From the NCBI GenBank assembly GCA_964507055.1, contig CAZDOJ010000001.1:593313-657312 (forward strand): a DNA stretch of 64,000 nt, given 5' to 3'. This DNA comes from an uncultured Gammaproteobacteria bacterium (GTDB lineage Bacteria; Patescibacteriota; Microgenomatia; Levybacterales; UBA12049). The translations under genes and the position numbers were made by a program. Position 1 is the first letter of the stretch; every line of letters begins with the position of its first letter. Shown in pieces: positions 2,596 to 49,867 of the stretch. A model generated the notes under the pieces. That model searched no databases. It had not been told where the DNA came from and was given only the letters and a program-made list of their open reading frames with translations.

Positions 2596-3735
2596 CTATT
2601 TCCCGAGCACTATTGAAACATCAATTGTTCCCTCTTGTCTCTCCTGTACAGTTACATCAGGTTTTATTTTGCGGACTTCATCAAGAACTGCATTGCGTGC
2701 TGTTTGACTCACTGCTCCTGAGAAAGAAACTATTGTACTTGTTGTCGACACACCAGTCTTTACCTGTGTTGTAACTGACTTAAACTCATATGCTTCAAGC
2801 GATGTTCGTAAAGCTTGAGAAGAACTTGATGCTGAAGCACTAACAATTTGTACTGAAAAATCGTCGAATCGAGCTGCTTCTTCAGTGGGTGAAACAGGTG
2901 CAACAGTATTTGCTACTTGGGGCATAACCGTCGGTTGCGTGGATGATTGCGGTGATGGAGCTGGTTGTATACTCTGCATATACACAAGTATCAATACAAC
3001 AACTAAGATTACAAAAATACCTATCATTGCAATTAATCGTTTCTTATTTGTCTTTGGAGGTTCCTTTCCTAATTCTTCCTGAACCACATCAACAGAATCA
3101 TCGCTTTCTGCTTTTTTTTGTGGTGTAAAAGCGGTTTGTGTTTTAATGTCATATTGCTTTAATCCAGCGGCTTTCTGCAATGTAGCATTTACCATACCGA
3201 GGTCCATTACAGGCTTTGAGCTTAAACCATTACCGAGAACCATTCCGGGAAATACTGAGGAAACAGTAAAGCCAAGTTTCTCAAATCCCTTTTCTATGCT
3301 GGTATACAAATCTTGGTTTACTGCACAAACACGTATACCATTTTTGAGAGGAAACGTCCGACTAACAACATTTTCATATGGGACATGTTCAATAAAAAGA
3401 TCAATCTGTGGTTTAAGGTCCTCAAGCGTAACTTTTGGTGTAACTGGGGTCGCGGGCTGTCCAGGTTTTGTAGGTTGTGATGCAGGTTGACTTGGGATAA
3501 CAAAATCTTTGACAAAATATGCATTGTCACTGAGAACAATAATAAAATTAATCGGAGCAATTTTACCATTTGTCACAAAAATCTTTATTTGGTCTTGCAA
3601 GGCATCATCATCAAGAACATCTAAATCACGTACAATATTAGGAGGGAAACGATATTCCACAACAGAACGCAAATACGGTGAATATAGTTGAAATTTATCT
3701 TTTTGTACGTAGATTACTCCTGTTTTTACTGTCAT
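2596..3735 (-). CDS. Pilus-assembly-associated bitopic membrane protein (PilM/PilN/PilO-like role inferred from context only)
   Basis: 379 aa with a roughly 215-aa cytoplasmic N-domain, a single TM (LIAMIGIFVILVVVLILVY) and a Pro/Thr-rich extracytoplasmic C-domain. It is tightly packed in the pilus operon. Confidence 0.45.
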   Translation of the reverse strand: MTVKTGVIYVQKDKFQLYSPYLRSVVEYRFPPNIVRDLDVLDDDALQDQIKIFVTNGKIAPINFIIVLSDNAYFVKDFVIPSQPASQPTKPGQPATPVTPKVTLEDLKPQIDLFIEHVPYENVVSRTFPLKNGIRVCAVNQDLYTSIEKGFEKLGFTVSSVFPGMVLGNGLSSKPVMDLGMVNATLQKAAGLKQYDIKTQTAFTPQKKAESDDSVDVVQEELGKEPPKTNKKRLIAMIGIFVILVVVLILVYMQSIQPAPSPQSSTQPTVMPQVANTVAPVSPTEEAARFDDFSVQIVSASASSSSQALRTSLEAYEFKSVTTQVKTGVSTTSTIVSFSGAVSQTARNAVLDEVRKIKPDVTVQERQEGTIDVSIVLGK

Positions 3736-3736
3736 A

Positions 3737-4165
3737 TTAAAAAACTTCTCTTTCCGATGTAACCGTCAATAAATTATTAACATAAGTTGCTTGAACTTCA
3801 ACAGTCCTTTTATAGTTACCAACCGTTCCTGTTGATGTAATTATATAGGGACTCACTGAGGTACCATTCCCTCCTACCACTATAACTGCTTCTCCTTGCC
3901 CAATTGTCAAAGTCTCACCTGCGTAAGAAGGTGGTGGAGTTCTCAGAACTCTTAATAATGCGTTTTCAGATCCACTCTGTGCTACTTGATACGCAAGTTC
4001 TCCTTGTTGCTGCCGTGTTCCGCTATTGGAATTTACCAAAATCATAACGATTGCCGCTGAAGTAATCGTCAACCCAATAATCATAAAGAACAATAGCGTG
4101 ATGAGTGCCTGTCCCTTTTGATATGAGAAAGATACATAATTTATTTGTCTATCAATTCTCATCAT
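3737..4165 (-). CDS. Minor pilin / pseudopilin-like protein lacking Glu5 (PilX/GspK-like)
   Basis: N-terminus ...QKGQALITLLFFMIIGLTITSAAIV has a prepilin-like G|Q cleavage context followed by a hydrophobic helix. It is 142 aa. Its stop overlaps the start of the next gene. Confidence 0.5.
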   Translation of the reverse strand: MMRIDRQINYVSFSYQKGQALITLLFFMIIGLTITSAAIVMILVNSNSGTRQQQGELAYQVAQSGSENALLRVLRTPPPSYAGETLTIGQGEAVIVVGGNGTSVSPYIITSTGTVGNYKRTVEVQATYVNNLLTVTSEREVF

Positions 4166-4716
4166 TATTGTCTAGCTAAAGTTGTTTGGAATGATCTCGA
4201 TTCATCTCCTGACGGTTGTTGGATTCTACTAACGACAGTGAAGTTTACTCGAATCGTATCGTTATTCGTTCCCGCCCCAATTCTTTGGAACGTCAAGCCA
4301 GTAAGATATGAATTTACACCATTTAGGACATTCACTTCTCCGGTAGTGCCATTGGTCAAACGGAGATTGCCATTACCGTCTAGGCTATATGTATAGTTTA
4401 TAGAATTTACCCGTATTTGCAAAGTGGAGGTCTGAGATCCCGGAGATGCTGGAATTACGATAGCATCATTTGTATTAATTGATTTCATATCATAAAACAT
4501 CTTTCCCATGATATATCTGCCATCTTGATCAACGGTTGATGTAGCTTCAGATTCTAATTGTACTTCAACTATCTGTCCAAACATCGTACTCATGATGCCA
4601 ACAAGGATAGAGAGGATCCCGACATAGAGTACAAGTTCAATAAGCGTAAACCCTTTTTGTCGTTTCTTCCGAGCAGCCTTTGCAGCAAAAAACTTCTGAA
4701 AAAATTTCATATCCAT
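4165..4716 (-). CDS. Pseudopilin / minor pilin with a prepilin-type N-terminal cleavage/methylation domain
   Basis: KKRQKGFTLIELVLYVGILSILV carries the canonical G|FTLIE motif. It is 183 aa. Confidence 0.7.
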   Translation of the reverse strand: MDMKFFQKFFAAKAARKKRQKGFTLIELVLYVGILSILVGIMSTMFGQIVEVQLESEATSTVDQDGRYIMGKMFYDMKSINTNDAIVIPASPGSQTSTLQIRVNSINYTYSLDGNGNLRLTNGTTGEVNVLNGVNSYLTGLTFQRIGAGTNNDTIRVNFTVVSRIQQPSGDESRSFQTTLARQ

Positions 4717-4772: not shown

Positions 4773-6560
4773 CTACGATCCGCCTGAGCCACTACCTGAA
4801 TTGCCTGATTGATTTTCTTGTAAGGCTTTAATCAAAGTGGAGATATCTGATGTTAGGATATCGTATCCTTCTTTTGTTATGCTTTTCCCTTTTTGTTTAT
4901 TTAGTTCTAATTGCATCGCTTTCAAGGTGGCAACTGCAAGTTTATTTCCTAAAGGCTGCTTATTACTTAGTGTTGCTTTTTCAGCAAGCTCAGTTTGGAG
5001 TAAAAAAGCAGTATAGAAGATGACATTTTTAATTTGTTTTTGTTTATAAAGTTGTTTAATATCATTTTTAAGAAGAGCAAATGTTACTTCGCGAAAAAGT
5101 TCAGTCTTAATATTATTTATATTTCCTTTATCGTACCTGAGCTTATAAGAAGTCACCGCATCTGGAGTTAAAGTACCTGTGTAAGAAGCAGCTTTCATTT
5201 CTCCTTCTTTAGTAAAAATGTACTCATCCAGCTGAAAATTTGGATCTATTGAAGAATAAACTTCGACAGTATAGTTATCTGATTCAGGTTTTGCAAAATA
5301 GAATACTTTAACTGCTGAGGTATTTGTATTGAACGGTTCATCAATAACTTGTGCAGGACTATATTCCAAATAGCTTTCCCCATACGTCCTTCCATTATCG
5401 TCTCTTACTGTTACCTCTGCATCCTTATCTACCACATAGACAATATAGGAAAGATCCGTATGTGAAGGCTCATACCTTCGAACTGACGAAGCCTGATTTG
5501 CATATGATGCCAAGGTAGTTCTATTAAATAAAGGATCATTGATCTCAAAAGTATTACCTATTTTGCCTTTTGCAACTACAAAATGCATACCAGGAGCATC
5601 CACTTGTAATATATTAGGAATTCCTTGATTTAGATCATTTGTAACTTTATTAGTATCAAAATAGATATTAGAATCATATTCTAAAGCGTCATAGTTAAAA
5701 TTTGGATTCTGAACTCTAGATTCTTTAGCTAAACGTCCAAGAGTAGGCCATATAACTCCAAGATTACGATTATAGCCTTTATTATTTTTTAGCCATGTAT
5801 TCAAAGTACCTGGAGTAATCTCTGTTCCGTTTGGCAATTTATCTATTTTGTGATACTTCAGTACCATTGCAAGTGATGAGGTAGCGCAACCACACTGTGC
5901 CATAGTTCTGCCACAACCATATTGAATTTGATCCCCAGCAGCAAAGACATCACTCTCCCATATGGGATTATTATCGTTATATGGAGCAGTCCCTTGTTTA
6001 AATGAAGGTACATTTAAACTAATTCCACCAGAAGGCGGCGTAACAATAGGTTTAGGCGTTACTGATGGAGATATTGGATTAAAGTCGGTATCAATAGCTG
6101 TAGTTAAGAATGGTTCAATGTCATCATCTTTTGTTTTTGAAACTATATAGAGCGTATCTATTGTTTTATTATTTGCACATTTATTTATGAAAGTAAAGTT
6201 AATTATTTGACGGCCTTCTCGCTCATATACTGAAGGATCTAAAAGTTTTCGTATTTCTAATGGTGGAAGCTTCTTAGTATTACATTCAGAATCGAATATA
6301 AACTTTTTTCCTGTATATAGATTAGATATTTCAAGAATATCTCCTACACTATTATTGCCAGGGATATGCGGATCATTATTAACAAAAACATATATATTTT
6401 CCGGTGGATTGTTAACATTTACACTAACTGTAGCTATTGTCTCTGCTGGTGTATTTTCAGGGATACTGAAACTACTTATAACACTGGCAAGACCAGTGGC
6501 ATATGCTGTAGAGTAAGCTGAAAAGAATACTAAAAGAAAGAAAATAAATAATTTAAGCAT
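4773..6560 (-). CDS. Secreted multi-domain protein with a C39-like (Peptidase_C39_2-type) papain-fold cysteine peptidase domain
   Basis: Has a signal peptide (MLKLFIFFLLVFFSAYSTAYA). The motif QYGCGRTMAQCGCATSSLAMVL supplies the Cys, and a downstream PGMHFVVAKG supplies the His, as expected for C39_2. The C-terminus has a Gly/Ser-rich tail. Confidence 0.6.
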   Translation of the reverse strand: MLKLFIFFLLVFFSAYSTAYATGLASVISSFSIPENTPAETIATVSVNVNNPPENIYVFVNNDPHIPGNNSVGDILEISNLYTGKKFIFDSECNTKKLPPLEIRKLLDPSVYEREGRQIINFTFINKCANNKTIDTLYIVSKTKDDDIEPFLTTAIDTDFNPISPSVTPKPIVTPPSGGISLNVPSFKQGTAPYNDNNPIWESDVFAAGDQIQYGCGRTMAQCGCATSSLAMVLKYHKIDKLPNGTEITPGTLNTWLKNNKGYNRNLGVIWPTLGRLAKESRVQNPNFNYDALEYDSNIYFDTNKVTNDLNQGIPNILQVDAPGMHFVVAKGKIGNTFEINDPLFNRTTLASYANQASSVRRYEPSHTDLSYIVYVVDKDAEVTVRDDNGRTYGESYLEYSPAQVIDEPFNTNTSAVKVFYFAKPESDNYTVEVYSSIDPNFQLDEYIFTKEGEMKAASYTGTLTPDAVTSYKLRYDKGNINNIKTELFREVTFALLKNDIKQLYKQKQIKNVIFYTAFLLQTELAEKATLSNKQPLGNKLAVATLKAMQLELNKQKGKSITKEGYDILTSDISTLIKALQENQSGNSGSGSGGS

Positions 6561-6614
6561 ACTTAATATATTATTATTATACTAATGTATTCTTATATTA
6601 TATGTCAATAACTT

Positions 6615-9092
6615 TTATTGTGAGTAATTCCAAGTAATATCTTGTAAGACAGGAGTTACTGTTTGATCTGTTAAAGACTCAAGTGTCACTTTATATCTAA
6701 AACAGCGCTCTGGATTAACAAAGGCCCCACTCATAAAGCTTCCAAATGGTATTTTATCAGAAATAACTGTTGTTACAGGAGTATAATAAGAAGTGTCACT
6801 CCCATCCGGCCCAATATATGTGTAACCCGAAGTTGGACAACTACCATTGGATAGTCCTTTTAACCCTACTTGAATTTTAACAGATGTATTTGTAGGCTGT
6901 ATAATATTCGCAAGCAGTCGATTAAATGCTCTTAAAATTGTGCTTGGCTCCACCGAAGCCGTATCAAATACCTGAGATTCAAACGTCCCACTTGGCATAA
7001 AAATTGCATTGTCCGGTCCACCTTGGATAATCTTTAACTCATTTGCAGTCGTATTTGCTACCATATATACATAGTTATCATAATCCGCTTCAGATACTGA
7101 AGTCAGATCATTAAACCCTTGATTGAAATCTACCCCTGAACAATACGTTGGTGTCGCCTCTGTCTCAGTATTGAGAACCTGATATTCTTGAGCATTTCCT
7201 CCACCAGATATACCATCTTTTCCTACCAGTACAGCACGTTGCCCATTAAGTACAGTCAGAGATCGCCGTGGATATAATTCTGAAGCACCAGAAGGTGCAG
7301 GGGAAGCTCCATTATAAAAACCTGACGAAGGTGTGCTGCTTCCTGTAAGAAATGTTGGCGAAGTTTTAGAAGTTGTGTTAAGGATATAAAATTGCTTACT
7401 ATCACTTCCTCCATTTGAGGAAATATATGCCCTACTACCATCTGCATTGGAGAATACTGAATTAGAGGCTTCTTCTGTACCTGATCCTGTATTAAAATCT
7501 TTACTCCCGCTTACTTTCCATGCTGTTGCTCCACCAGAAATACGTCCACAACTATTTCCGGTTAAGGAACTTCCACTTGTAGGTGCTGTCGTTACGTTGA
7601 CGATCTCAAATTCAGGATTTGTTACGCCTCCCACAGCGACATACACATATGTATTGTTTCCAACTTTAACTGGAAAAATATCATTTGTGGCAAGCAATTC
7701 AATGTTTCCTCCATCAGAACAATCGTTGTGGATTGGAGAGGTCGTATCTCCCCAAGAAGTTCCTGACTGTCCAGAATCATACTTCGCAGCTGTTCCTGGC
7801 GAACCTGGTCGACATTCATAACCATCAAGTTCGATCCTACAGCCGTACATATCAAGTCCATTTGATGTTGATTTACTATCGATATTTGCCAAATTAAACA
7901 CGTATAGATATCCACCTGAAGCAACATATCCACGATCCCCTAATACCGCGACGGATGAAGCACCATAACTATAAGGCGATTGATCATTACTGGAACTTGC
8001 AATACCGTTATATCTTCTAGTATTAAAAAAAGTTTTGTATTTATAGAGTTTATTAACTGGATCTTGATACTCTCCACTTGTTGTATTGTCATTGGCACTA
8101 TTCCCATCATTTACCCAAACAACAATAACTTCTTTATCAGGAAGATTTGTTCCGAGAATTGCATACGTGTTTCCACCAGAGGACTTATAATATTTCACAT
8201 CGGTTGTTGAAAAATTATTATCAAGTCCTGTACCTGATTGTGGAGCATATCCTGATGCATACTCTGAAGCATTCATCGTAAATTTGCCTCTTAGTGTTGT
8301 CGCAGGCGTGTCAGTATTTGCAGTTACATTTACATAAGCTAATTTTGCTGAGCTTGTAGCATAAGGTGCTGTTGCTACGAATACATCATTAGGTTGAGCC
8401 GTTGTAGCACTTGCCGTAGCAGCAACAGCAACAGGCGGTCCATCAGGCAAATCAATTGTAGCTTCTCCTCCTAAATCATTCAAAGCAAAGGCGGGCGTAC
8501 ACCATTTGGCTTTATTGTTATTTGCCAATTTTACTTCCCCACCGGAATCATTTGTCACTTGAATATTTACTCCAGTTCCTGCGTCAAATTGTGCTTTTGT
8601 TGTATGAGAGGCAGTAAGATTACTTGTTCTCGTCAAAAAGATTGTTGAGGTAATCGATGAAGGAATTGGTCTTGTCCAAGAAACAGTAATATCTGCTTTT
8701 CTAGTCGAGGGATCAAGTGTATTTCCTGCAGAAGTTGAAGCAATTGCTCCGGCTGATGTTCTATAAACACTTGATAAAATAACCTGTTGCGTAAATCCTG
8801 CAGAAGTTGAAGCAGAACCTGAGGATAATGACCATCTGTTACTGACAATCACAGGATGATAGGGAGATCCGATAGTTAAGCCTGAAAGTGTTGCCCAATC
8901 ACTATCTCTGACACTTTTGACGGCAGTTTCTGTTTCTTTCATCAGTGCAATTGCCTGGAGACGCTGCTCCTGCTGCGGTTTTCCATCACGTGACGCGAGA
9001 AGTCCTGAAACCAATCCTGGCAAGATAAGTGCTGCCAAACCAATGGTTAAAACCAACTCAATAAGTAATTGTCCTCGTTGCAATTTTTTCAT
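6615..9092 (-). CDS. Giant pilin-like protein (825 aa) with a prepilin-type N-terminus. It is a candidate tip adhesin or minor pilin.
   Basis: The N-terminus MKKLQRGQLLIELVLTIGLAALILPGL fits G|QLLIE with Glu5. The remainder is a large Ser/Thr/Gly/Asn-rich, beta-type region. Confidence 0.65.
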   Translation of the reverse strand: MKKLQRGQLLIELVLTIGLAALILPGLVSGLLASRDGKPQQEQRLQAIALMKETETAVKSVRDSDWATLSGLTIGSPYHPVIVSNRWSLSSGSASTSAGFTQQVILSSVYRTSAGAIASTSAGNTLDPSTRKADITVSWTRPIPSSITSTIFLTRTSNLTASHTTKAQFDAGTGVNIQVTNDSGGEVKLANNNKAKWCTPAFALNDLGGEATIDLPDGPPVAVAATASATTAQPNDVFVATAPYATSSAKLAYVNVTANTDTPATTLRGKFTMNASEYASGYAPQSGTGLDNNFSTTDVKYYKSSGGNTYAILGTNLPDKEVIVVWVNDGNSANDNTTSGEYQDPVNKLYKYKTFFNTRRYNGIASSSNDQSPYSYGASSVAVLGDRGYVASGGYLYVFNLANIDSKSTSNGLDMYGCRIELDGYECRPGSPGTAAKYDSGQSGTSWGDTTSPIHNDCSDGGNIELLATNDIFPVKVGNNTYVYVAVGGVTNPEFEIVNVTTAPTSGSSLTGNSCGRISGGATAWKVSGSKDFNTGSGTEEASNSVFSNADGSRAYISSNGGSDSKQFYILNTTSKTSPTFLTGSSTPSSGFYNGASPAPSGASELYPRRSLTVLNGQRAVLVGKDGISGGGNAQEYQVLNTETEATPTYCSGVDFNQGFNDLTSVSEADYDNYVYMVANTTANELKIIQGGPDNAIFMPSGTFESQVFDTASVEPSTILRAFNRLLANIIQPTNTSVKIQVGLKGLSNGSCPTSGYTYIGPDGSDTSYYTPVTTVISDKIPFGSFMSGAFVNPERCFRYKVTLESLTDQTVTPVLQDITWNYSQ

Positions 9093-16889: not shown

Positions 16890-17603
16890 CTAGAAGTATC
16901 GTCGAACGAGGCCAACAACTTTTCCTTGAATCTTTACTGTATTTGGATAAATAGGTTGCATAGTTGCATTTGCAGGCTTGAGGACAACTTTTCCGCCCTC
17001 TTTATAAAATCTTTTCAATGTCGCCAAGTTATCATCAACTAACGCTACGACAATCTCCCCATTCATTGCATCGTTTACCTTTTCGATAACTACGAAATCT
17101 CCATCCATGATGCCATCTTCGATCATTGATTCACCTTTTACTTGTAATACGTATGCAGTCTTTGAACCTGTAAGCATTGATGCAGAGACTTGGAATGTTG
17201 CATTTGGATCAATATGTGGCTCAAGTGGCCTACCAGCTGCAATATAACCCATGAGTGGCAATTCTACTGAAGGAGAAGTACCCATGAAAGTAGAAATAAC
17301 ATTCTCATCCTTCACCTTAAGAACACGTGCATTTCCATCAACTTTTTGTACATACCCTTTATCGACTAAATTTCTGAGAATAACGTGAATTGTTGAAACA
17401 CTTTTATGTCCAGTTGCATCAGCGATTTCTCGAAGCGTTGGGGCATACGTATGTTTATTTTGAAATTGTACGAGGAATTCAAGTACTTGTCTTTCTTTTC
17501 TATATAAAACTCCTGGCATAGGCTTAATAGGTATCGACTTTCTTCTTAAAATAAAAGACGAACTGTTAATGAAAAATATACGACAATTCGTATATTTTAT
17601 CAA
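16890..17603 (-). CDS. lexA: LexA repressor (S24 peptidase). The probable true start is MPGVLYRKE at 17519.
   Basis: A winged HTH (TLREIADATGHKSVSTIHVIL) is followed by an S24 domain with Ser (KGESM) and Lys (LKRF) catalytic residues. The first 28 aa of the longest ORF look non-protein-like. Confidence 0.85.
   Translation of the reverse strand: MIKYTNCRIFFINSSSFILRRKSIPIKPMPGVLYRKERQVLEFLVQFQNKHTYAPTLREIADATGHKSVSTIHVILRNLVDKGYVQKVDGNARVLKVKDENVISTFMGTSPSVELPLMGYIAAGRPLEPHIDPNATFQVSASMLTGSKTAYVLQVKGESMIEDGIMDGDFVVIEKVNDAMNGEIVVALVDDNLATLKRFYKEGGKVVLKPANATMQPIYPNTVKIQGKVVGLVRRYF
17576..17595. promoter_or_regulatory. Palindrome ATATACGACAATTCGTATAT upstream of the probable lexA start. It is a candidate SOS/LexA operator.
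   Basis: A perfect 7-bp inverted repeat (ATATACG/CGTATAT) with a core TACGA-N4-TCGTA, 57-76 bp upstream of the ATG at 17519. It resembles Gram-positive-type CGAAC-N4-GTTCG boxes. Confidence 0.3.
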
Positions 17604-36883: not shown

Positions 36884-37723
36884 ATGACTGAAAATCCACT
36901 ACATAGATCTGGGGAACCAGATCAAGATCCTACGTTGCGTGAAATTAAAGATCATGCGGAATCTGTTAATCTCACATATATAAGTAATACAGATTTTAGA
37001 CGGAACCTAAAACGTCGAGAAGGACAACATCGAGTAGTATTTGAAGCAGTTAAAGAAGGTTTACTCACAATCGAGGATGGTGCATTTTTAACTGCATCGC
37101 TCCATGCCGAAACAGATATAGAAACAGAAATAGATGCCAGAACAGGTTTGTACAAAGATCACGTGGCTCAAAGAAGACTTCGAGAGGATTTACGTATGTC
37201 AGCCCTCGTGAATGAACCTGTGTCAGTCGCATTTGTCGATTTAGATGATTTTGGGAAAGTAAATAAAGCATATTCGCAAGATCATGGCGATGCGGTTCTT
37301 GGAGTGGTAGGAGAATATTTACGAAGAAATTCTCGTGCAACGGATACCGTCGGCAGAAGAGGCGGAGAAGAGATTTTGATAGTCATGCCAGGAATTGATG
37401 AAGTTACTATGCGGCAGCGGTTGTTACCTGTCTTTGATTTTATGCCAGAATATGTCGCTGATGCGATAGCGGGGACAGGTTTTGCAATAACGAATAGAAT
37501 TACTGCGAGTGTGGGAGTAGCAAATGTTTTATTTGATAGTCAGCAGCCTTCAGGTTCTGTTTTGACTGCATCTTCAAATGTACTCATTAATACAGCAGAT
37601 AGACGAATGAATATAGCAAAGGCTGCAGGGAAAAATAGAGTATTTGGGACAGCACAAGAAAAAACATGGCGTAGAGATGTATATGCACAAGGGAAAAAGG
37701 TTGTTGCTCAAAACCTTTTATAA
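36884..37723 (+). CDS. GGDEF-domain diguanylate cyclase (GGEEI active-site variant, intact RxxD I-site) with a roughly 110-aa N-terminal domain of unknown function
   Basis: AFVDLDDFGKVNKAYSQDHGDAVL...RATDTVGRRGGEEILIVM matches PleD-type spacing (RxxD-x5-GGEEx). Confidence 0.75.
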   Translation: MTENPLHRSGEPDQDPTLREIKDHAESVNLTYISNTDFRRNLKRREGQHRVVFEAVKEGLLTIEDGAFLTASLHAETDIETEIDARTGLYKDHVAQRRLREDLRMSALVNEPVSVAFVDLDDFGKVNKAYSQDHGDAVLGVVGEYLRRNSRATDTVGRRGGEEILIVMPGIDEVTMRQRLLPVFDFMPEYVADAIAGTGFAITNRITASVGVANVLFDSQQPSGSVLTASSNVLINTADRRMNIAKAAGKNRVFGTAQEKTWRRDVYAQGKKVVAQNLL

Positions 37724-37753: not shown

Positions 37754-40700
37754 ATGTCTATAATAAAATCTCCAATGGCTGATTTTGTCCACCTTCACAA
37801 CCACTCAGAATTTTCGCTTCTTGATGGACTACAAAAGACAAAAAACATGGTCGAATATGCAAAAGAACTTGGGATGAAAGCACTTGCTATTACTGACCAT
37901 GGAAATATGTATGGAACTATTAAATTCTACAAAGCATGCAAAGATGCTGGGATAAAACCTATTATTGGCTGTGAGATCTATGTAAGCAAACGATCGCTCC
38001 ATTTAAAAGAAGCCGAAGATAAAGATTATAACCATTTGATACTCTTGGCAGAAAACGATGAAGGATATAAAAATCTGATGAGAATCGTTACGATTGCAAA
38101 CTTAGAAGGTTATTATTATAAACCACGAACCGATCTTGAACTGCTCGAGAAATACAAAGAAGGTATAATTTGCCTAAGTGCATGCGTCAATGGATTTGTC
38201 AGTGAACCACTTATGAAAGGAGATGATGAACTTGGAGAAAAGCGTGCCTTACAATTGGCAAAAATATACGGTCCCAATAATTTTTTTCTTGAAGTACAAC
38301 ACCATCTCAATGTACCACCGCAGGAACCTGTAAACAAAAAACTTCTCGCATTATCAAAAAAACTAGGCCTTCCAATTGTGGCTACAAATGATAACCATTA
38401 CACACGTAAAGAAGATGCTGAGGGGCAAGAAGCTCTACTCTGTATTCAAACTCAATCTACTCTCCTTGATAAAGAAAGAAAACTGTCAATGGTATCCTCC
38501 CCTGACTTTTACATCAAATCTGCTGAAGAGATGGAAAAACTTTTTGCAGACACGCCAGAAGCGATTGAAAATGCAAATAATATTGCTGAAAGATGTAATG
38601 TAGAAATTACTCTCGGTAAATGGCATATGCCAGTATTTGAAGTGCCTGATGGACTCAGTGCTGCTGATTATTTAACAAAACTTGTTTACGATGGTGCAAA
38701 AGCGAGATATGGTGATCTCACTGATACGATAAAGGAACGATTGGATTACGAGCTTTCCGTTATTGTCAAAAAAGGATATGAAACGTATTTCCTTGTGGTA
38801 TCAGACTTTGTGAATTGGGCAAAAGATCATGGAATTGCAGTTGGACCAGGAAGAGGCTCTGCTGCCGGATCAGTGGTAGGATATTGCCTAAAAATCACTG
38901 ACGCAGATCCTTTTTTCTTTAAACTTCCCTTTGAGCGATTTTTGAACCCACTTCGTCCATCAGCACCTGATATTGATTTGGATTTCGCAGATACCAGGCG
39001 TGAAGAAGTCATTGCTTACGTGACGGAAAAATATGGTAAAGATAAAGTTGCACAGATTATTACCTTTGGAACCATGGAAGCCAAAGGAGCTATACGTGAT
39101 GTTGGTCGAGTGATGGGTATGCCATATGCTGCACCAGATAGAATCTCCAAACTCATCCCGCCAGGCTTTCAAGGGAAAAATCCATCACTTGACGACTCTC
39201 TTGCACAAAGTGCTGAGCTTCGATCTGCATATCTCAATGAACCTGATACAAAAAAACTCATTGATCTAGCAAAAAAACTTGAAGGTGTTGCACGTCACGC
39301 TTCAGTTCACGCAGCAGGCGTTGTGATTGCGGATAAACCTCTTACTGAATATACACCTCTCCAAAGAGAATCTAATGGAGATAAAGTGGTAACTCAATAT
39401 GACATGTACACTGTTGGTGAGGATGGTGTCGGACTGTTAAAAATGGATTTTCTTGGTTTGAGAAATTTAACCATTATCGAAGAATGTTTAAAATTCATTA
39501 AGGAAAATCAAGGACTCGAGGTAGACTTTACAAAAGTTGATCTTGAAGATAAAAACACCTATGATCTGTTATCTGAAGGAGAAACGACAGGTATTTTCCA
39601 ACTAGAATCTGCTGGCATGCGTCGATATATCAAAGAGCTCAAGCCAACCTCAATTTTTGATCTGCAAGCAATGGTAGCTTTGTATCGACCTGGTCCAATG
39701 GCAATTATTCCAGAGTTTATTAAAAGGAAGCATAATCCAGAAACAATTGATTACCCTGATCCTCGACTAAAAGATATTTTACAACAATCCTATGGAGTAC
39801 TCACATATCAGGATGATGTGCTGTTAACTGCTATTACGCTTGCGGGATATTCATGGTTGGATGCGGATAAATTCCGAAAAGCGATGGGTAAAAAGATTCT
39901 TTCTGAGATGAAAAAGCAGGAAGAATTATTCCTCTCAGGCTGTGTCAAAAATGGTTTAACACATAAAAGAGCTGCGGAAATTTATGAACTTATTGCACCA
40001 TTTGCAGGTTATGGATTTAATAAAGCTCACGCAGCCTGTTATGCAATCATTGCTTTTCGAACTGCATATCTAAAAGCGAATTATCCTGTGGAATTTATGA
40101 CAGCATTACTAACGGCTGAATCTCGAGGTACCTCAGGACCAGCAAAAAACGAAAAAATTGCCCAAGCAGTTATGGAATGTAAACGGCTAAAGATCCCACT
40201 TTTGCCTCCTGACATCAATAAATCAGAAAAGGATTTTAGTATAGAAGATGGAACAAAGATTCGATTTGGAATGTCAGCAGTTAAAAACGTCGGAGATGCA
40301 GCAATAGATAACATATTAGAAGCTCGGAAAAGTCGCAAGTTTACAACAATTGAGGACTTCCTTGTACGATTAACATTATCAGCAGTCAATAAAAAGACAC
40401 TAGAATCCTTAATAAAAGTTGGAGCTATGGATGCTTTTGGAAACAGAGCTTCATTGCTTATCGCCTTTCCTGAAATTGTTAGTAAAATTACGGTTATCAG
40501 GAAACAACAAGCAGAAGGCCAAGCTTCCCTTTTCGACATTCCCGATGAATCTGATAGCACAACTCCAAACATCGACTTTTCATTAACTGAAATTGAAGAT
40601 TTCACAAAGGAAGAGAAATTGAACTTTGAAAGAGACTTTCTTGGGATATATCTCACTGCACATCCGCATTTAGAGAAACTTGCATACCTGAAATCATTTG

Positions 40701-41026
40701 GAACAATTGGGTTTGATGAATTAGAAGAGCAAGAACAAGGAAGTGTAGTAAAAATTGGAGGCATAGTCGATAGTGTTAAAAAGATTTTTACGAAGAAGAC
40801 AAATGCCGAAATGGCATTTTTGGGTATAGCCGATGAAAAAGGAACGATAATTGAATGTGTCGTTTTCCCTAAATCATTTGAGTTATTTAAGAACTTATTA
40901 GTTAAAGATAGTGTCATTATTGTCAATGGAAAATATGATACGAAGAATGATAAGCCTACCTTATTGGCAGATAGTATTACATCTATTGATACGCTGCTCC
41001 TTGACTTAAATCCAAAGACAAATTAA
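37754..41026 (+). CDS. dnaE: DNA polymerase III alpha subunit
   Basis: N-terminal PHP domain (FVHLHNHSEFSLLDG), a polymerase core, and an OB-fold. It is 1090 aa, and an alternative start lies at MADF (37775). Confidence 0.95.
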   Translation: MSIIKSPMADFVHLHNHSEFSLLDGLQKTKNMVEYAKELGMKALAITDHGNMYGTIKFYKACKDAGIKPIIGCEIYVSKRSLHLKEAEDKDYNHLILLAENDEGYKNLMRIVTIANLEGYYYKPRTDLELLEKYKEGIICLSACVNGFVSEPLMKGDDELGEKRALQLAKIYGPNNFFLEVQHHLNVPPQEPVNKKLLALSKKLGLPIVATNDNHYTRKEDAEGQEALLCIQTQSTLLDKERKLSMVSSPDFYIKSAEEMEKLFADTPEAIENANNIAERCNVEITLGKWHMPVFEVPDGLSAADYLTKLVYDGAKARYGDLTDTIKERLDYELSVIVKKGYETYFLVVSDFVNWAKDHGIAVGPGRGSAAGSVVGYCLKITDADPFFFKLPFERFLNPLRPSAPDIDLDFADTRREEVIAYVTEKYGKDKVAQIITFGTMEAKGAIRDVGRVMGMPYAAPDRISKLIPPGFQGKNPSLDDSLAQSAELRSAYLNEPDTKKLIDLAKKLEGVARHASVHAAGVVIADKPLTEYTPLQRESNGDKVVTQYDMYTVGEDGVGLLKMDFLGLRNLTIIEECLKFIKENQGLEVDFTKVDLEDKNTYDLLSEGETTGIFQLESAGMRRYIKELKPTSIFDLQAMVALYRPGPMAIIPEFIKRKHNPETIDYPDPRLKDILQQSYGVLTYQDDVLLTAITLAGYSWLDADKFRKAMGKKILSEMKKQEELFLSGCVKNGLTHKRAAEIYELIAPFAGYGFNKAHAACYAIIAFRTAYLKANYPVEFMTALLTAESRGTSGPAKNEKIAQAVMECKRLKIPLLPPDINKSEKDFSIEDGTKIRFGMSAVKNVGDAAIDNILEARKSRKFTTIEDFLVRLTLSAVNKKTLESLIKVGAMDAFGNRASLLIAFPEIVSKITVIRKQQAEGQASLFDIPDESDSTTPNIDFSLTEIEDFTKEEKLNFERDFLGIYLTAHPHLEKLAYLKSFGTIGFDELEEQEQGSVVKIGGIVDSVKKIFTKKTNAEMAFLGIADEKGTIIECVVFPKSFELFKNLLVKDSVIIVNGKYDTKNDKPTLLADSITSIDTLLLDLNPKTN

Positions 41027-46907: not shown

Positions 46908-47324
46908 ATGAAACTCGAGATAGTAACTCCAGAAAAAATTATCTATAGCGGCGATGTAGACCAAATTACTGTTGAAACAGTGGATGGAAGAATCGCTATC
47001 CTTCCCCATCATGTAAATTTATTTACCAAAATCAAACCAGGCGAACTACATCTCAAAATAGCTGATAAAGAACAGTTCCTTGCAGTTACTGGAGGATTCT
47101 TGGAAGTAAGCAATAATAAGGTAACTATTCTAGCAGATTATGCGATACACGCTGAAGAAGTTGATGTTGAAAAAGCACTTGCTGCTCAAAAGAGAGCTGA
47201 AGAACTATTAAAGAAAAAAGAAGGTCAGCTTTCAGATATCGAATACGCGGAACTCCAAGGTGCACTTGGTCGAGCATTGCTCGAATTGGATATAGCCAAC
47301 AAACGTAGGCGGAGAAAAGTTTAG
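46908..47324 (+). CDS. atpC: F0F1 ATP synthase subunit epsilon
   Basis: MKLEIVTPEKIIYSGDV...ILPHH is the canonical epsilon N-terminal beta-sandwich. Confidence 0.85.
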   Translation: MKLEIVTPEKIIYSGDVDQITVETVDGRIAILPHHVNLFTKIKPGELHLKIADKEQFLAVTGGFLEVSNNKVTILADYAIHAEEVDVEKALAAQKRAEELLKKKEGQLSDIEYAELQGALGRALLELDIANKRRRRKV

Positions 47325-47389
47325 GCACAATTGAGTAAATAAAATACTCTATTAAATATTAATTGTATTTTCTTCTTATTATTACTCCT

Positions 47390-47425
47390 TGCAATTTCCC
47401 GAAAAATTTTGTATACTAAATTGGT
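47390..47425 (+). promoter_or_regulatory. Near-consensus sigma70-type promoter (TTGCAA - 17 nt - TATACT)
   Basis: ttgcaatttcccgaaaaattttgtatact read directly. It lies in a 450-bp AT-rich non-coding gap upstream of tRNA-Thr. Confidence 0.35.
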
Positions 47426-47775
47426 TCAAGGATACTATTATTTGGCCCAGTTCATTTCTTAGATTTATAGAAAATAGTATTTCAGGAAGCACTCCTCATT
47501 TAGCCTCAAATTAGCAGTCATACCAAAAATTTGCTAAGTATATAGTAATTTTTCTGAAATCTTAGCCTCGAATTAAAATAATTTTTTAAACAAAAATTAG
47601 CTTAATTGAACAATATTTTATGTATATAATATAAATTATGAGGACTCGCTGATATTTTTTATCAGTACTGAATTAAGTTTTTTATACCTATATGAGTTAA
47701 ATCTTGCATATAAATTCGTTCATAAATAATACTCATTTGCTACCTGAGCTAAAATTAATTAAAATACATTTTATC

Positions 47776-47847
47776 GCCGATGTAGCTCAGAGGTAGAGCA
47801 GCGGTATCGTAAACCGCTGGCCGTGGGTTCAATTCCCACCATCGGCT
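47776..47847 (+). tRNA. tRNA-Thr (anticodon CGT); CCA not encoded
   Basis: GCCGATGTAGCTCAGAGGTAGAGCAGCGGTATCGTAAACCGCTGGCCGTGGGTTCAATTCCCACCATCGGCT. The 7-bp acceptor and the D, anticodon and T arms fold canonically. Confidence 0.85.
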
Positions 47848-47861
47848 CTCATTTTCCCGAA

Positions 47862-49049
47862 TTATTGCAAATGCCAATAGAGTGTCATTTTGCCTCCGTC
47901 ATGAAATAAGAAAACGCCATTACCGCCATCTCCTGTGCAGTTTCTACAAAAATATGCTTGTCCAGACTCAACTGCACGGACGGCAGTATCACCTCTTCTG
48001 TGCATATCTATAGCAGGATGTGGATTTCCATTGTAATAAGGACCACTGTAACATGTGACTCCAGACGCCTGTGACAAATATAATCCATCAGTCGCCATAG
48101 GCCAACTCCACGTGCCACTTCCACTTGTTGCCATACCACTTGGATCGCCACTACAACCACTGATCCAATTTACCGTTCGAGGTTCAAGGTAGTTCAATGG
48201 ATTCTCCCATCCGCCATAATAACTATATTGTGATAATGATGACGCATTATAAACTCCAAAATGTAAATGTGCACCCGTAGAAAAACCTGTGTTCCCCATC
48301 CAACCAATTTGCTCACCCTTGGCAACTCTACGTGGTTCAGTGGATATTAATACTTTTGCAGCACGGGCAATACTCCGTAATTCTTGTTGTGCATCAGATA
48401 AACGGCTCTGATACTCCCCTTCAGAGTTTTTGGTTGTTGTAAGTAAATTTTGCTTTTCAATCTTTTGTTGATCAAGTTCTCTTGTGTATGCCTCAAGTTG
48501 CTTGTTTAGCAGCTCGACTTTATTCTTTTTTTCTTCAAAAATATTCTTTTGATTTTGATAATCATTTTTTGCTTGCTGAGTATTAATAAGTAACGCTTGA
48601 TCATGTGCACGAACTAATTTAATGTAGTTTATTTTTTTAAAATAGTCGTCTGCTCCATTGGCGGCAAAAAGTACATGAACCGCCTGCATATCGCCCAATT
48701 GGTATGAAGTAACTATTCTTTTAACAAGCACTTTTGAAACTTGATCGAGAGAGCCTTCTAAATTGTCTATCTTTTTTGAAGCCGCTGTTATGTCTTTACT
48801 AAGAACCTCAATCTGGTTCTTTGTTGAAGCTATTCTATATTCTGTTAACTTCATCTGACTGTCCATCATTTGAATTTGTGAAGAAAGAGTTTTTGCTTGT
48901 CCTTGAAGTTCAGTAATTTTACCTTGATATTCTTTTATTTTTCCTTCAAGCTCTGAGGCAGATGCACCATAGACAGTATTCTGAGGAAGTAGCAATACTA
49001 TAAGTGTAAAAATTGAACTCACGAGAAAGAATTTTGAGGGATTCATATG
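47862..49049 (-). CDS. Secreted M23-family metallopeptidase with an N-terminal coiled coil. Its catalytic motifs are in permuted order (the HxH block precedes the HxxxD block). The longest ORF reaches 49163, but the signal-peptide start is at 49049.
   Basis: Signal peptide MNPSKFFLVSSIFTLIVLLLP and a coiled coil. GWMGNTGFSTGAHLHF appears at about residues 270-290, while HPAIDMHRRGDTAVRAVESGQAY...GNGVFLFHDGGKMTLYWHL sits at the extreme C-terminus. Confidence 0.75.
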   Translation of the reverse strand, partial: HMNPSKFFLVSSIFTLIVLLLPQNTVYGASASELEGKIKEYQGKITELQGQAKTLSSQIQMMDSQMKLTEYRIASTKNQIEVLSKDITAASKKIDNLEGSLDQVSKVLVKRIVTSYQLGDMQAVHVLFAANGADDYFKKINYIKLVRAHDQALLINTQQAKNDYQNQKNIFEEKKNKVELLNKQLEAYTRELDQQKIEKQNLLTTTKNSEGEYQSRLSDAQQELRSIARAAKVLISTEPRRVAKGEQIGWMGNTGFSTGAHLHFGVYNASSLSQYSYYGGWENPLNYLEPRTVNWISGCSGDPSGMATSGSGTWSWPMATDGLYLSQASGVTCYSGPYYNGNPHPAIDMHRRGDTAVRAVESGQAYFCRNCTGDGGNGVFLFHDGGKMTLYWHLQ

Positions 49050-49120
49050 CTCAAAAATGATACCACAAGCACAAAGTTTGGTAAAGCTATAGAGATTTGA
49101 TAAGCATCTTTTGACATTTT

Positions 49121-49867
49121 TTGCTAGAATATCACTACATGAGACAACCAGCAGAAAAATCACGATTCAAAGAGCACCTACAAAAAGAAGCATCAAGAAA
49201 TGTTATCTTTGCAATTTTGGGAATTATTCTCGTTGTTGCTCTTCTTATAATCTTTGGAACCAATATATTAGTAAGCTTTAGTTTGCTTGTAGGGAAAATA
49301 TCTGGCACTGATGACCCCCCTGCTGAAACGCAACAAAATGTCACCTATATCGCTCCTCCAACACTTGATCCGACGGCGGAGGCTACAAGTAGTGCTGCTG
49401 TTGTCATAACCGGATATGGAAAGCCAGACCAACGGATAGATCTTTATCGAAATGGGAAAATGATAAGTAAAACAACTGTAAAAAGTAATAACACCTTTCG
49501 ATTTACGAATGTTACATTGGTGGAAGGCGTAAATAGCTTAAAAGCAAGAGCAGTTACAGATGATAATCAACGAAGTAACTATTCAAATGAAATTAGGATA
49601 TCTTTGCTTAATAAATCCCCTGAACTTTCGGTAGACTTTCCACAAGATGGTCAAGTCTTTAAGAAAGACCAAAGTCCAATTAAAATTAGTGGAAAGACAG
49701 ATCCAGGCGTAAAAATTACAGTAAATGATTTTAGAGCTATTGTTGATAGTAGTGGAAATTATAGCTATTTGTATAATTTAAAGGATGGAGACAATAATCT
49801 AAAAATTGCAGCAACAGATAATGCAGGAAATCAGACGACTAAAGAGATTAACATTCGGATAGAATAA
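49121..49867 (+). CDS. Hypothetical membrane-anchored protein with extracytoplasmic Ig-like (Big-type) beta domains
   Basis: N-terminal TM (VIFAILGIILVVALLIIFG), then beta-rich repeats (VVITGYGKPDQRIDLYRNGK..., IKISGKTDPGVKITVND). Confidence 0.45.
   Translation: MLEYHYMRQPAEKSRFKEHLQKEASRNVIFAILGIILVVALLIIFGTNILVSFSLLVGKISGTDDPPAETQQNVTYIAPPTLDPTAEATSSAAVVITGYGKPDQRIDLYRNGKMISKTTVKSNNTFRFTNVTLVEGVNSLKARAVTDDNQRSNYSNEIRISLLNKSPELSVDFPQDGQVFKKDQSPIKISGKTDPGVKITVNDFRAIVDSSGNYSYLYNLKDGDNNLKIAATDNAGNQTTKEINIRIE

Follow-up and report, generated by a model that had tools for sequence, protein, structure and literature searches.

A family-wide circular permutation of the M23 peptidase domain in a probable FtsEX-coupled division hydrolase of Microgenomates-type Patescibacteria

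The window analysed here, the whole 64,000-nucleotide stretch taken from contig CAZDOJ010000001.1, encodes on its minus strand an exported protein in which the two halves of an M23 (LytM/lysostaphin-type) peptidase domain occur in swapped order (Table 1). The mechanical open reading frame (ORF) of this gene extends upstream to a GTG at 49163. The ATG at 49046 is the likelier start, because the resulting product has the length and the N-terminus of the closest homologues (P0001-P0010) and because a promoter-like site lies just upstream of it; that site falls within the GTG-extended frame. An earlier reading made from the letters of the window only, hereafter the sequence-only reading, had placed the ORF at 47862-49049: the minus-strand frame and its stop codon stood, and the start proved to be 3 nt off. 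The same reading had recognized the M23 part of the protein and missed the rest of its architecture, namely an N-terminal coiled coil of the type that interacts with FtsX, as well as the ftsEX operon context of the family. Following a signal peptide or anchor and about 210 residues of long helices, the protein ends in a C-terminal domain of about 160 residues, and it is the layout of this domain that sets the protein apart.

In canonical M23 domains the linear order of the motifs is HxxxD...YxHL...HxH. The HxxxD residues are Zn ligands, the first His of HxH is catalytic while the second binds Zn, and the His of YxHL is the third catalytic His. The protein described here departs from that order. 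The stretch G248-WMGNTGFSTGAHLHF-263, with H260 and H262, comes first, followed by H343-PAID-347 and finally by Y390-WHLQ-394, directly before the stop codon. The sequence-only reading had pointed out that the HxH block stands ahead of the HPAID block and that a catalytic motif closes the protein, and both points are borne out by the sequence, Pfam and phmmer; the separation that it gave as about 100 residues is 83, counted from H260 to H343. The Pfam profile Peptidase_M23 (PF01551) matches the protein in two stretches and scores 52.9 bits (cut-off, 28.7); profile positions 52-90 of 96 correspond to the upstream stretch. Meanwhile, phmmer aligned the late segment of the query to residues 22-84 of lysostaphin (4qp5) and the early segment to residues 95-118. 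The domain is homologous to M23 and represents a topological variant of it. Its first half, equivalent to the canonical C-terminal half (B), displays the motif string V.KGxxIG..GNTGxSxGxHLHF...NPxxYL, and its last half, equivalent to the canonical N-terminal half (A), displays WxWP...[ST]Q.xG...HxxxD...GN.v.i.H..G..t.YxHL.

Exchanging the halves in silico restored a conventional domain. A construct made of residues 309-394 followed by residues 232-292 gave a single contiguous Pfam M23 match (profile 2-90 of 96) with 66 bits, as compared to 55.6 bits in two stretches for the native order. The construct aligned to LytM (2b0p) without a break across the artificial junction (query 12-130 to chain 6-124), and it was also contiguous with lysostaphin, ShyA, TagE, and others. 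The new termini lie between the YxHL strand and the next segment, V.kGxxIG, and a linker (residues ~290-310) connects the former C-terminus, ...NPLNYLEP, with the former N-terminus, WSWP.... Judged by these alignments, the C-terminal domain is a clean circular permutation of the M23 domain. Its order would read half B, a new linker of 20-50 aa, and half A, where a canonical domain has A followed by B. The two halves are expected to fold into one domain that rebuilds the Zn site from H343, D347, and H262, with H260 and H392 as putative catalytic residues. The M23 fold belongs to the SCOP class 'duplicated hybrid motif', which makes such a swap of halves structurally plausible.

All orthologues that we examined, whether close or distant, conserve the permuted order. 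A homologue search over 5.8 billion proteins retrieved 663 matches, the best 120 of which were analysed; these are 49-90% identical to the protein over more than 90% of its length, and in each of them (120/120) HxH precedes HxxxD and the C-terminus reads ...YWH[LVM][QRE]. Across an alignment of 121 orthologues, which were not selected by motif, H260, H343, D347, and H392 are invariant, as are four cysteines, and the conservation of H262 is 90% or more. When the 170-aa domain was scanned exhaustively with HMMER against 1.84 billion representatives of 50%-identity clusters, 2197 matches at E<=1e-3 resulted. Among the best 150 of these representatives, 65 have the permuted order, the lowest identities being about 31%, and the others are M23 proteins of canonical order, each matched in two pieces. 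Permuted representatives were selected with a regular expression for HxH and HxxxD, so that both motifs are present in 66/66 sequences of this diverse set by construction. H392 was not a selection criterion and is present in 65/66; P316 is found in 66/66, and Q326 and Y390 in 64/66 each. The spacing from HxH to HxxxD ranges from 48 to 96 residues in the family, which identifies the linker as the variable part, while the protein nearly always ends 2 residues past the YxHL His, and at most about 6. Finally, a scan of GTDB with one genome per species revealed 51 permuted loci, from Levyibacteriota, Daviesbacteria, Gottesmanbacteria, Pacebacteria, Collierbacteria, Shapirobacteria, WWE3, and unclassified Microgenomates or Patescibacteria. 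The remaining matches of that scan are coiled-coil proteins with an M23 domain in canonical order (Bacillus and relatives, Ruminococcus, Saccharibacteria, Moranbacteria, Parcubacteria, and Terrybacteria).

This distribution bears directly on the proposal, also raised in the sequence-only reading, that the gene is an inactive remnant or an assembly artefact made at a tRNA integration hotspot. The gene does end close to tRNA-Thr (13 nt away, not 15 as first stated), but the same order and the same C-terminus recur in the 120 close homologues, in the 65 further representatives, and in the 51 GTDB loci, the latter from independent assemblies, which speaks against misassembly. The ORF is intact, its catalytic residues are invariant, and the locus is syntenic with that of a related genome (L004); the adjacency to the tRNA, flanked by the atp operon, is ordinary synteny shared with it. 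The homologues are not copies of one mobile pseudogene, because their identities span 31-90% and their host contexts differ. No integrase or other mobile element was found among the ORFs scanned with Pfam, ten within about 8 kb of the gene and ten elsewhere in the window. A remnant or artefact is therefore almost certainly the wrong explanation. Insertion at a tRNA hotspot was likewise rejected when 12 related loci were scanned for tRNAs: 11 had none in the fetched flanks, and only L004 has an adjacent tRNA-Thr.

Structure prediction agrees with a domain closed by a single chain. When modelled alone in its native order with AlphaFold2 (AF2), using a diverse alignment of 36 sequences, the domain forms a single compact beta-rich unit with a predicted local distance difference test score (pLDDT) of 94.0 and a predicted template-modelling score (pTM) of 0.90. 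The full-length model, based on the 121 orthologues, has a mean pLDDT of 81.8, with values mostly above 90 in the C-terminal domain; residues 21-28, which follow the helix of the signal peptide, are a low-confidence stretch. The cysteines of the family occur strictly in subfamily-specific pairs: 298 and 332 together with 367 and 370 (the Levybacteria type), 298 with 327, 284 with 289, or 255 with ~370. A loop cysteine accompanies C255 in 20/21 sequences and occurs without it in 11/42. These pairs are probably disulfide staples, as would be expected in one packed extracellular domain. Some of them would tie the linker to half A (298 with 327 or 332) and others half B to half A (255 with ~370). 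In the set that contains CxxC, a structural Cys4 metal site could take the place of the disulfides. As support for a single packed domain the pairing is suggestive only, because the sequences are related to one another.

These data also bear on whether halves B and A might pair between the subunits of a coiled-coil dimer, by domain swapping, so that the active site would form only in the oligomer. PcsB is known as an inactive dimer that forms through its coiled coil (PMC11627006), and the variable B-A linker, at its shortest about 20 aa, would suit such an arrangement. On the other hand, AF2 folds the single chain into a compact domain with high confidence, and intramolecular closure fits both the distance between the halves and the conserved stop two residues past the His. 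The cysteine pairs connect the linker and the halves in the pattern of one chain, although one that a swap could still accommodate. Complementation between subunits thus appears very unlikely. Collectively, the conserved order, the retention of the five residues, the end-to-end alignment of the un-permuted construct, and the compact predicted domain uphold, at the level of sequence and evolution, the true circular permutation that had first been proposed.

The N-terminal part of the protein offered insights into how this domain might be controlled. AF2 places helices at residues 27-50, 54-117, 132-204, and 209-235 of this module. The long antiparallel coiled coil (54-117 and 132-204) followed by a hydrolase-type domain in an exported protein is the architecture of the class of EnvC, PcsB, CwlO, and RipC. 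In a Foldseek search of PDB with the full-length model, the best match was EnvC in the FtsE/FtsX/EnvC complex of V. cholerae (8tzl_E). Other top matches were EnvC bound to the periplasmic domain of FtsX (6tpi_A) and RipC in the FtsEX/RipC complex of M. tuberculosis (8idc_E and 8jia_E, the latter with a root-mean-square deviation of 2.6 A over 153 columns in the coiled coil), and RipA and PcsB ranked lower. The CC_PcsB and EnvC profiles match the protein weakly, PF24568 is precomputed on many orthologues, and JGI labels homologues as 'CwlO-like'.

The genomic context of the family points in the same direction. Clustering of neighbouring genes showed that about 40 of the 51 loci share a one-strand cluster composed of prfB, a 158-aa membrane protein, ftsE, ftsX, and, in last place, the permuted M23 gene, often with abutting genes. 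Pfam matches of the neighbours confirmed FtsE (ABC_tran), FtsX (FtsX_ECD and FtsX), and PrfB (PCRF and RF-1). In Bacillus, Rossellomorea, Sutcliffiella, and Ruminococcus, canonical coiled-coil M23 genes with CC_PcsB and a contiguous Peptidase_M23 match occupy the same slot after ftsE-ftsX, which makes the permuted gene the positional counterpart of the canonical FtsEX-associated M23 gene. The proteins of Firmicutes (e.g., that of Bacillus sp. in L057) resemble the one described here in having a signal peptide, a PcsB/EnvC-type coiled coil, and a C-terminal M23 domain with its catalytic residues, and their genes also lie downstream of (prfB...) ftsE-ftsX. They share about 20-25% identity with it over the whole length. 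Their M23 domain, however, is canonical (contiguous over Pfam positions 2-96 of 96) and ends in ...NPxxYL, whereas the permuted protein ends in ...YWHLQ.

Other features of these loci deserve mention. Between prfB and ftsE, 35/51 loci (within L005-L053, e.g., L008:3873-4343, plus strand) encode a conserved protein of some 150-160 aa that has a hydrophobic segment at its N-terminus and matches no Pfam family; this protein could be a so far unrecognised component of the ftsEX division cluster of Microgenomates. In loci of the Shapirobacteria type (L050-L052), ftsX is directly followed by two permuted M23 genes in tandem (e.g., L050:4715-5866 and 5866-7044), and L049, which lacks an upstream flank, has such a pair as well; these pairs reflect gene duplication inside the permuted family. 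In L001, the locus of homologue P0067, the context resembles neither the ftsEX cluster nor the window: the permuted gene (4804-5970) lies beside a canonical LysM+M23 gene (3464-4264), a DsbA/thioredoxin-like gene, and genes of metal homeostasis (Cu oxidase, cation efflux, and Nramp).

FtsEX is known to pass an ATP-driven conformational change through the coiled coils of its partners (PMC7668044, PMC10214136, PMC11627006). In EnvC, movement of the coiled coil under FtsEX control frees a restraining-arm helix from the LytM domain's groove, while PcsB, CwlO, and RipC are hydrolases themselves (same references). [quoted passage not shown] The LytM domain of EnvC has the canonical order, is degenerate, and activates amidases; in contrast, the permuted domain keeps all Zn-binding and catalytic residues. 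A further difference is that helix 209-235 meets the core strand through about 3 residues. With PcsB of S. pneumoniae, CwlO of B. subtilis, and RipC of M. tuberculosis, the protein would share the combination of a coiled coil with a competent hydrolase under direct FtsEX control, except that their catalytic part is a cysteine peptidase of the CHAP or NlpC/P60 kind and not an M23 metallopeptidase.

Could the protein instead be a silent regulator, like EnvC or NlpD of E. coli, whose LytM-type domain docks onto and activates another enzyme such as an amidase? A permutation would be tolerated in that case, since only the binding groove is needed, and EnvC, as it occurs in FtsEX-EnvC complexes, is the nearest structural match to the protein as a whole and has the same architecture and operon position. 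Nevertheless, activators of the EnvC type are defined by degenerate metal-binding and catalytic residues (PMC11627006). Here all five residues (H260, H262, H343, D347, and H392) show little or no variation across hundreds of sequences with identities as low as about 31%, which argues for selection on catalysis. We did not assign the protein to the EnvC-type activators for this reason, and we consider a silent regulator unlikely. Because it keeps its own catalytic residues, unlike EnvC, the protein probably cuts peptidoglycan cross-links itself and not by way of amidases.

Based on these findings, we propose that the protein is a secreted or membrane-tethered M23 peptidoglycan metallo-endopeptidase with an active, permuted catalytic domain that acts as an FtsEX-coupled division hydrolase, and we put the probability of this reading at roughly 0.78. 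It would most likely be the FtsEX-controlled hydrolase of division or separation in Microgenomates-type Patescibacteria. A very short connection would join the coiled coil to the catalytic domain, and, by analogy with the known systems, ATP-driven movement of FtsX acting on the coiled coil would switch the peptidase on. From the same analogy we infer a directly catalytic, FtsEX-gated endopeptidase that takes part in cell separation or division.

Several observations weigh against this proposal. Neither a Pfam search of 20 neighbouring ORFs nor tblastn with FtsE, FtsX, PrfB, and the 158-aa protein from related loci detected ftsE, ftsX, or prfB in the 64 kb of the window, and the case for FtsEX control of this particular copy is based on its retained coiled coil only. 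The AF2 confidence drops to 59-67 at the junction between helix and domain (residues 221-240). Moreover, a Foldseek search of PDB with the domain-only model returned no significant match and no M23 structure. An order-dependent aligner is expected to struggle with a permutant, yet a partial match was expected, and the result is unexplained.

The lack of linkage raises the question of whether the window copy is a paralogue outside the FtsEX system, that is, a free or differently regulated autolysin, acting for example in elongation or in envelope remodelling with its Wzy and glycosyltransferase neighbours, while a second, ftsEX-linked copy serves division. The gene is flanked on one side by the atp operon and tRNA-Thr, and on the other by genes for an Ig-like protein, an O-antigen-ligase-like (Wzy) protein, and glycosyltransferases, thus by cell-envelope genes. 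The copies of the window, L004, and L007 are not beside ftsEX, although 6-8 kb of upstream sequence was available, and the tandem Shapirobacteria genes show that duplicates exist in the family. There is no further M23 gene within the window. Against a paralogue with a separate role, a neighbour-joining tree places the sequences of the window and L004 inside the ftsEX-linked sequences of Levybacteria; they retain the full coiled coil and are 50-60% identical to linked copies. We regard such a paralogue as a real but minor possibility. L004, from Levyibacteriota, carries an M23 gene with 74% identity and is syntenic with the window gene for gene (atp operon, tRNA-Thr, M23 gene, Ig-like protein, and Wzy), with ATP synthase subunits that are 83-93% identical. 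Within Levybacteria, the window copy has either moved recently or arisen as a paralogue, and its position beside the atp operon and tRNA-Thr is incidental, with no bearing on the domain order.

The proposed hydrolase allows for a further, more speculative idea, which is that the permutation is not a neutral accident and instead re-wired the control of the enzyme. The break between YxHL and the next strand would place the new N-terminus of the domain, and with it the last helix of the coiled coil, the counterpart of the restraining arm of EnvC, at the edge of the catalytic groove, and would leave the free C-terminal carboxylate two residues from the catalytic H392. Coiled-coil movement driven by FtsEX might then control the active site by way of a rigid connection of 3 residues, with no flexible tether. 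We hold this adaptive explanation to be rather doubtful. If true, mechanical movement would be transmitted to an M23 enzyme in a new way, one that became fixed across a large lineage of the candidate phyla radiation (CPR).

As to its origin, duplication of the domain followed by truncation is plausible on the sequence data. Proteins with tandem M23-M23 domains are common among the matches of the domain scan (e.g., P0166, P0197, P0242, and P0254). Across their tandem junctions the permuted domain can be aligned without a break, as with query residues 9-169 and residues 537-680 of P0197, and the distance between their two domains resembles that spanned by the permuted linker, which is what this route would lead one to expect. 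No coiled-coil-bearing intermediate of the route was identified among the matches.

Relative to LytM, lysostaphin, ShyA, and MepM (MEROPS M23, PF01551), the protein retains the HxxxD, YxHL, and G.TG.S.G.HxH motifs but has swapped halves, a new internal linker that is often stapled by cysteines, and new termini beside the catalytic His. Our full-text literature searches found no report of a circularly permuted M23/LytM domain, nor of an FtsEX hydrolase of Patescibacteria. The sole permutation precedent that they returned comes from permuted NlpC/P60 proteins (YaeF/poxvirus G6R, LRAT-like), in which natural permutation reordered the catalytic residues within a peptidoglycan-peptidase superfamily (PMC6403190); unlike M23, these proteins have another fold, belong to the papain-like Cys-His class, and have no association with FtsEX. 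A paper on the HABAS/barrel-sandwich-hybrid superfold describes permuted topologies in this superfold generally, M23 not among them. No curated NCBIfam model covers the protein, which gave only sub-threshold EnvC and M23 matches.

The family is a natural permutant of a well-known enzyme fold within a well-known regulatory architecture. M23/LytM enzymes are among the best-studied cell-wall hydrolases and include antimicrobials of the lysostaphin type and the division factors EnvC, NlpD, and ShyA. Our findings point to a likely FtsEX-coupled division hydrolase for a large uncultured lineage of ultrasmall cells, the Microgenomates and their relatives. Order-sensitive annotation underestimates such proteins, as illustrated by the precomputed Pfam match on P0067, which is flagged as weak, and by the order-dependent Foldseek search with the domain. 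The family is also a natural experiment on how far a regulatory coiled coil can be re-attached to a catalytic core, with implications for FtsEX signalling and for the engineering of lysostaphin-like enzymes. The permutation should surprise specialists of M23 and FtsEX and be of use for the annotation of CPR cell division, while it is still a variation on known parts.

Table 1. Features of the permuted M23 gene and its immediate surroundings; positions are those of the 64-kb window
Feature	Position	Strand	Basis or remark
Permuted M23 coding sequence	47862..49046	-	394 aa plus stop TAA (47862-47864); start ATG (49046-49044)
Promoter-like site	49057..49085	-	TTTACC-17-TATCAT with TG, just upstream of the ATG; consensus match only
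Signal peptide or anchor, residues 1-27, hydrophobic (MNPSKFFLVSSIFTLIVLLLPQNTVYG|AS)	48966..49046	-	Sequence reading; AF2 helix 3-19
Coiled-coil module, residues ~27-235, EnvC/RipC/PcsB type	48342..48968	-	AF2 helices, Foldseek, weak profile matches
Canonical C-terminal half (B), residues 236-289, placed first	48180..48341	-	Pfam profile 52-90 of 96; lysostaphin residues 95-118
HxH motif, H260-L-H262	48261..48269	-	Orthologue alignment
New linker, residues 290-310, including C298	48117..48179	-	Joins canonical C-terminus to canonical N-terminus; length variable in the family
Canonical N-terminal half (A), residues 311-394, placed last, ends the protein	47865..48116	-	Lysostaphin residues 22-84; un-permuted construct
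HxxxD motif, H343-PAI-D347	48006..48020	-	Orthologue alignment
H392 of YWHL, 2 residues before the C-terminus	47871..47873	-	Orthologue alignment
C298, C332, C367, C370	48153-48155, 48051-48053, 47946-47948, 47937-47939		Invariant in the Levybacteria subfamily
tRNA-Thr(CGT)	47776..47848	+	Convergent with the M23 coding sequence; neighbour, outside the system

The structural searches also returned an unforeseen group of viral proteins. Against BFVD, the domain model (47865-48374) matched only large virion proteins of cyanophages, with E values of 6.5e-4 to 7e-2. These proteins are about 1000 aa long (from S-TIM5 and Synechococcus phage P60) and matched with a TMq of about 0.45 over 165-187 columns. 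They might contain tandem or permuted M23-like modules.

GTDB records that contain a locus of the Patescibacteria type (L005, L006, L009, L010, L012-L014, and others) are often titled 'uncultured Gammaproteobacteria', 'uncultured Pseudomonadales', or 'uncultured Bdellovibrionales'. They are bins from third-party annotation (TPA) co-assemblies, and their titles look like placeholder or erroneous taxonomy.

Around the gene itself, an Rfam search of 47200-49400 gave the tRNA as its sole match. The non-coding gap of about 450 nt between atpC and tRNA-Thr (47325-47775) had no Rfam match at E<=0.1 in this searched part. A divergent gene (49121-49867, plus strand) encodes a membrane-anchored protein with Ig-like/Glucodextranase_B domains, and it lies beside the M23 gene in L004 as well (64% identity); its annotated TTG start overlaps the GTG-extended M23 ORF. 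Elsewhere, the window encodes a LexA-like repressor (16890-17603, minus strand), a GGDEF-domain protein (36884-37723, plus strand), and an ORF of 1090 aa (37754-41026, plus strand).

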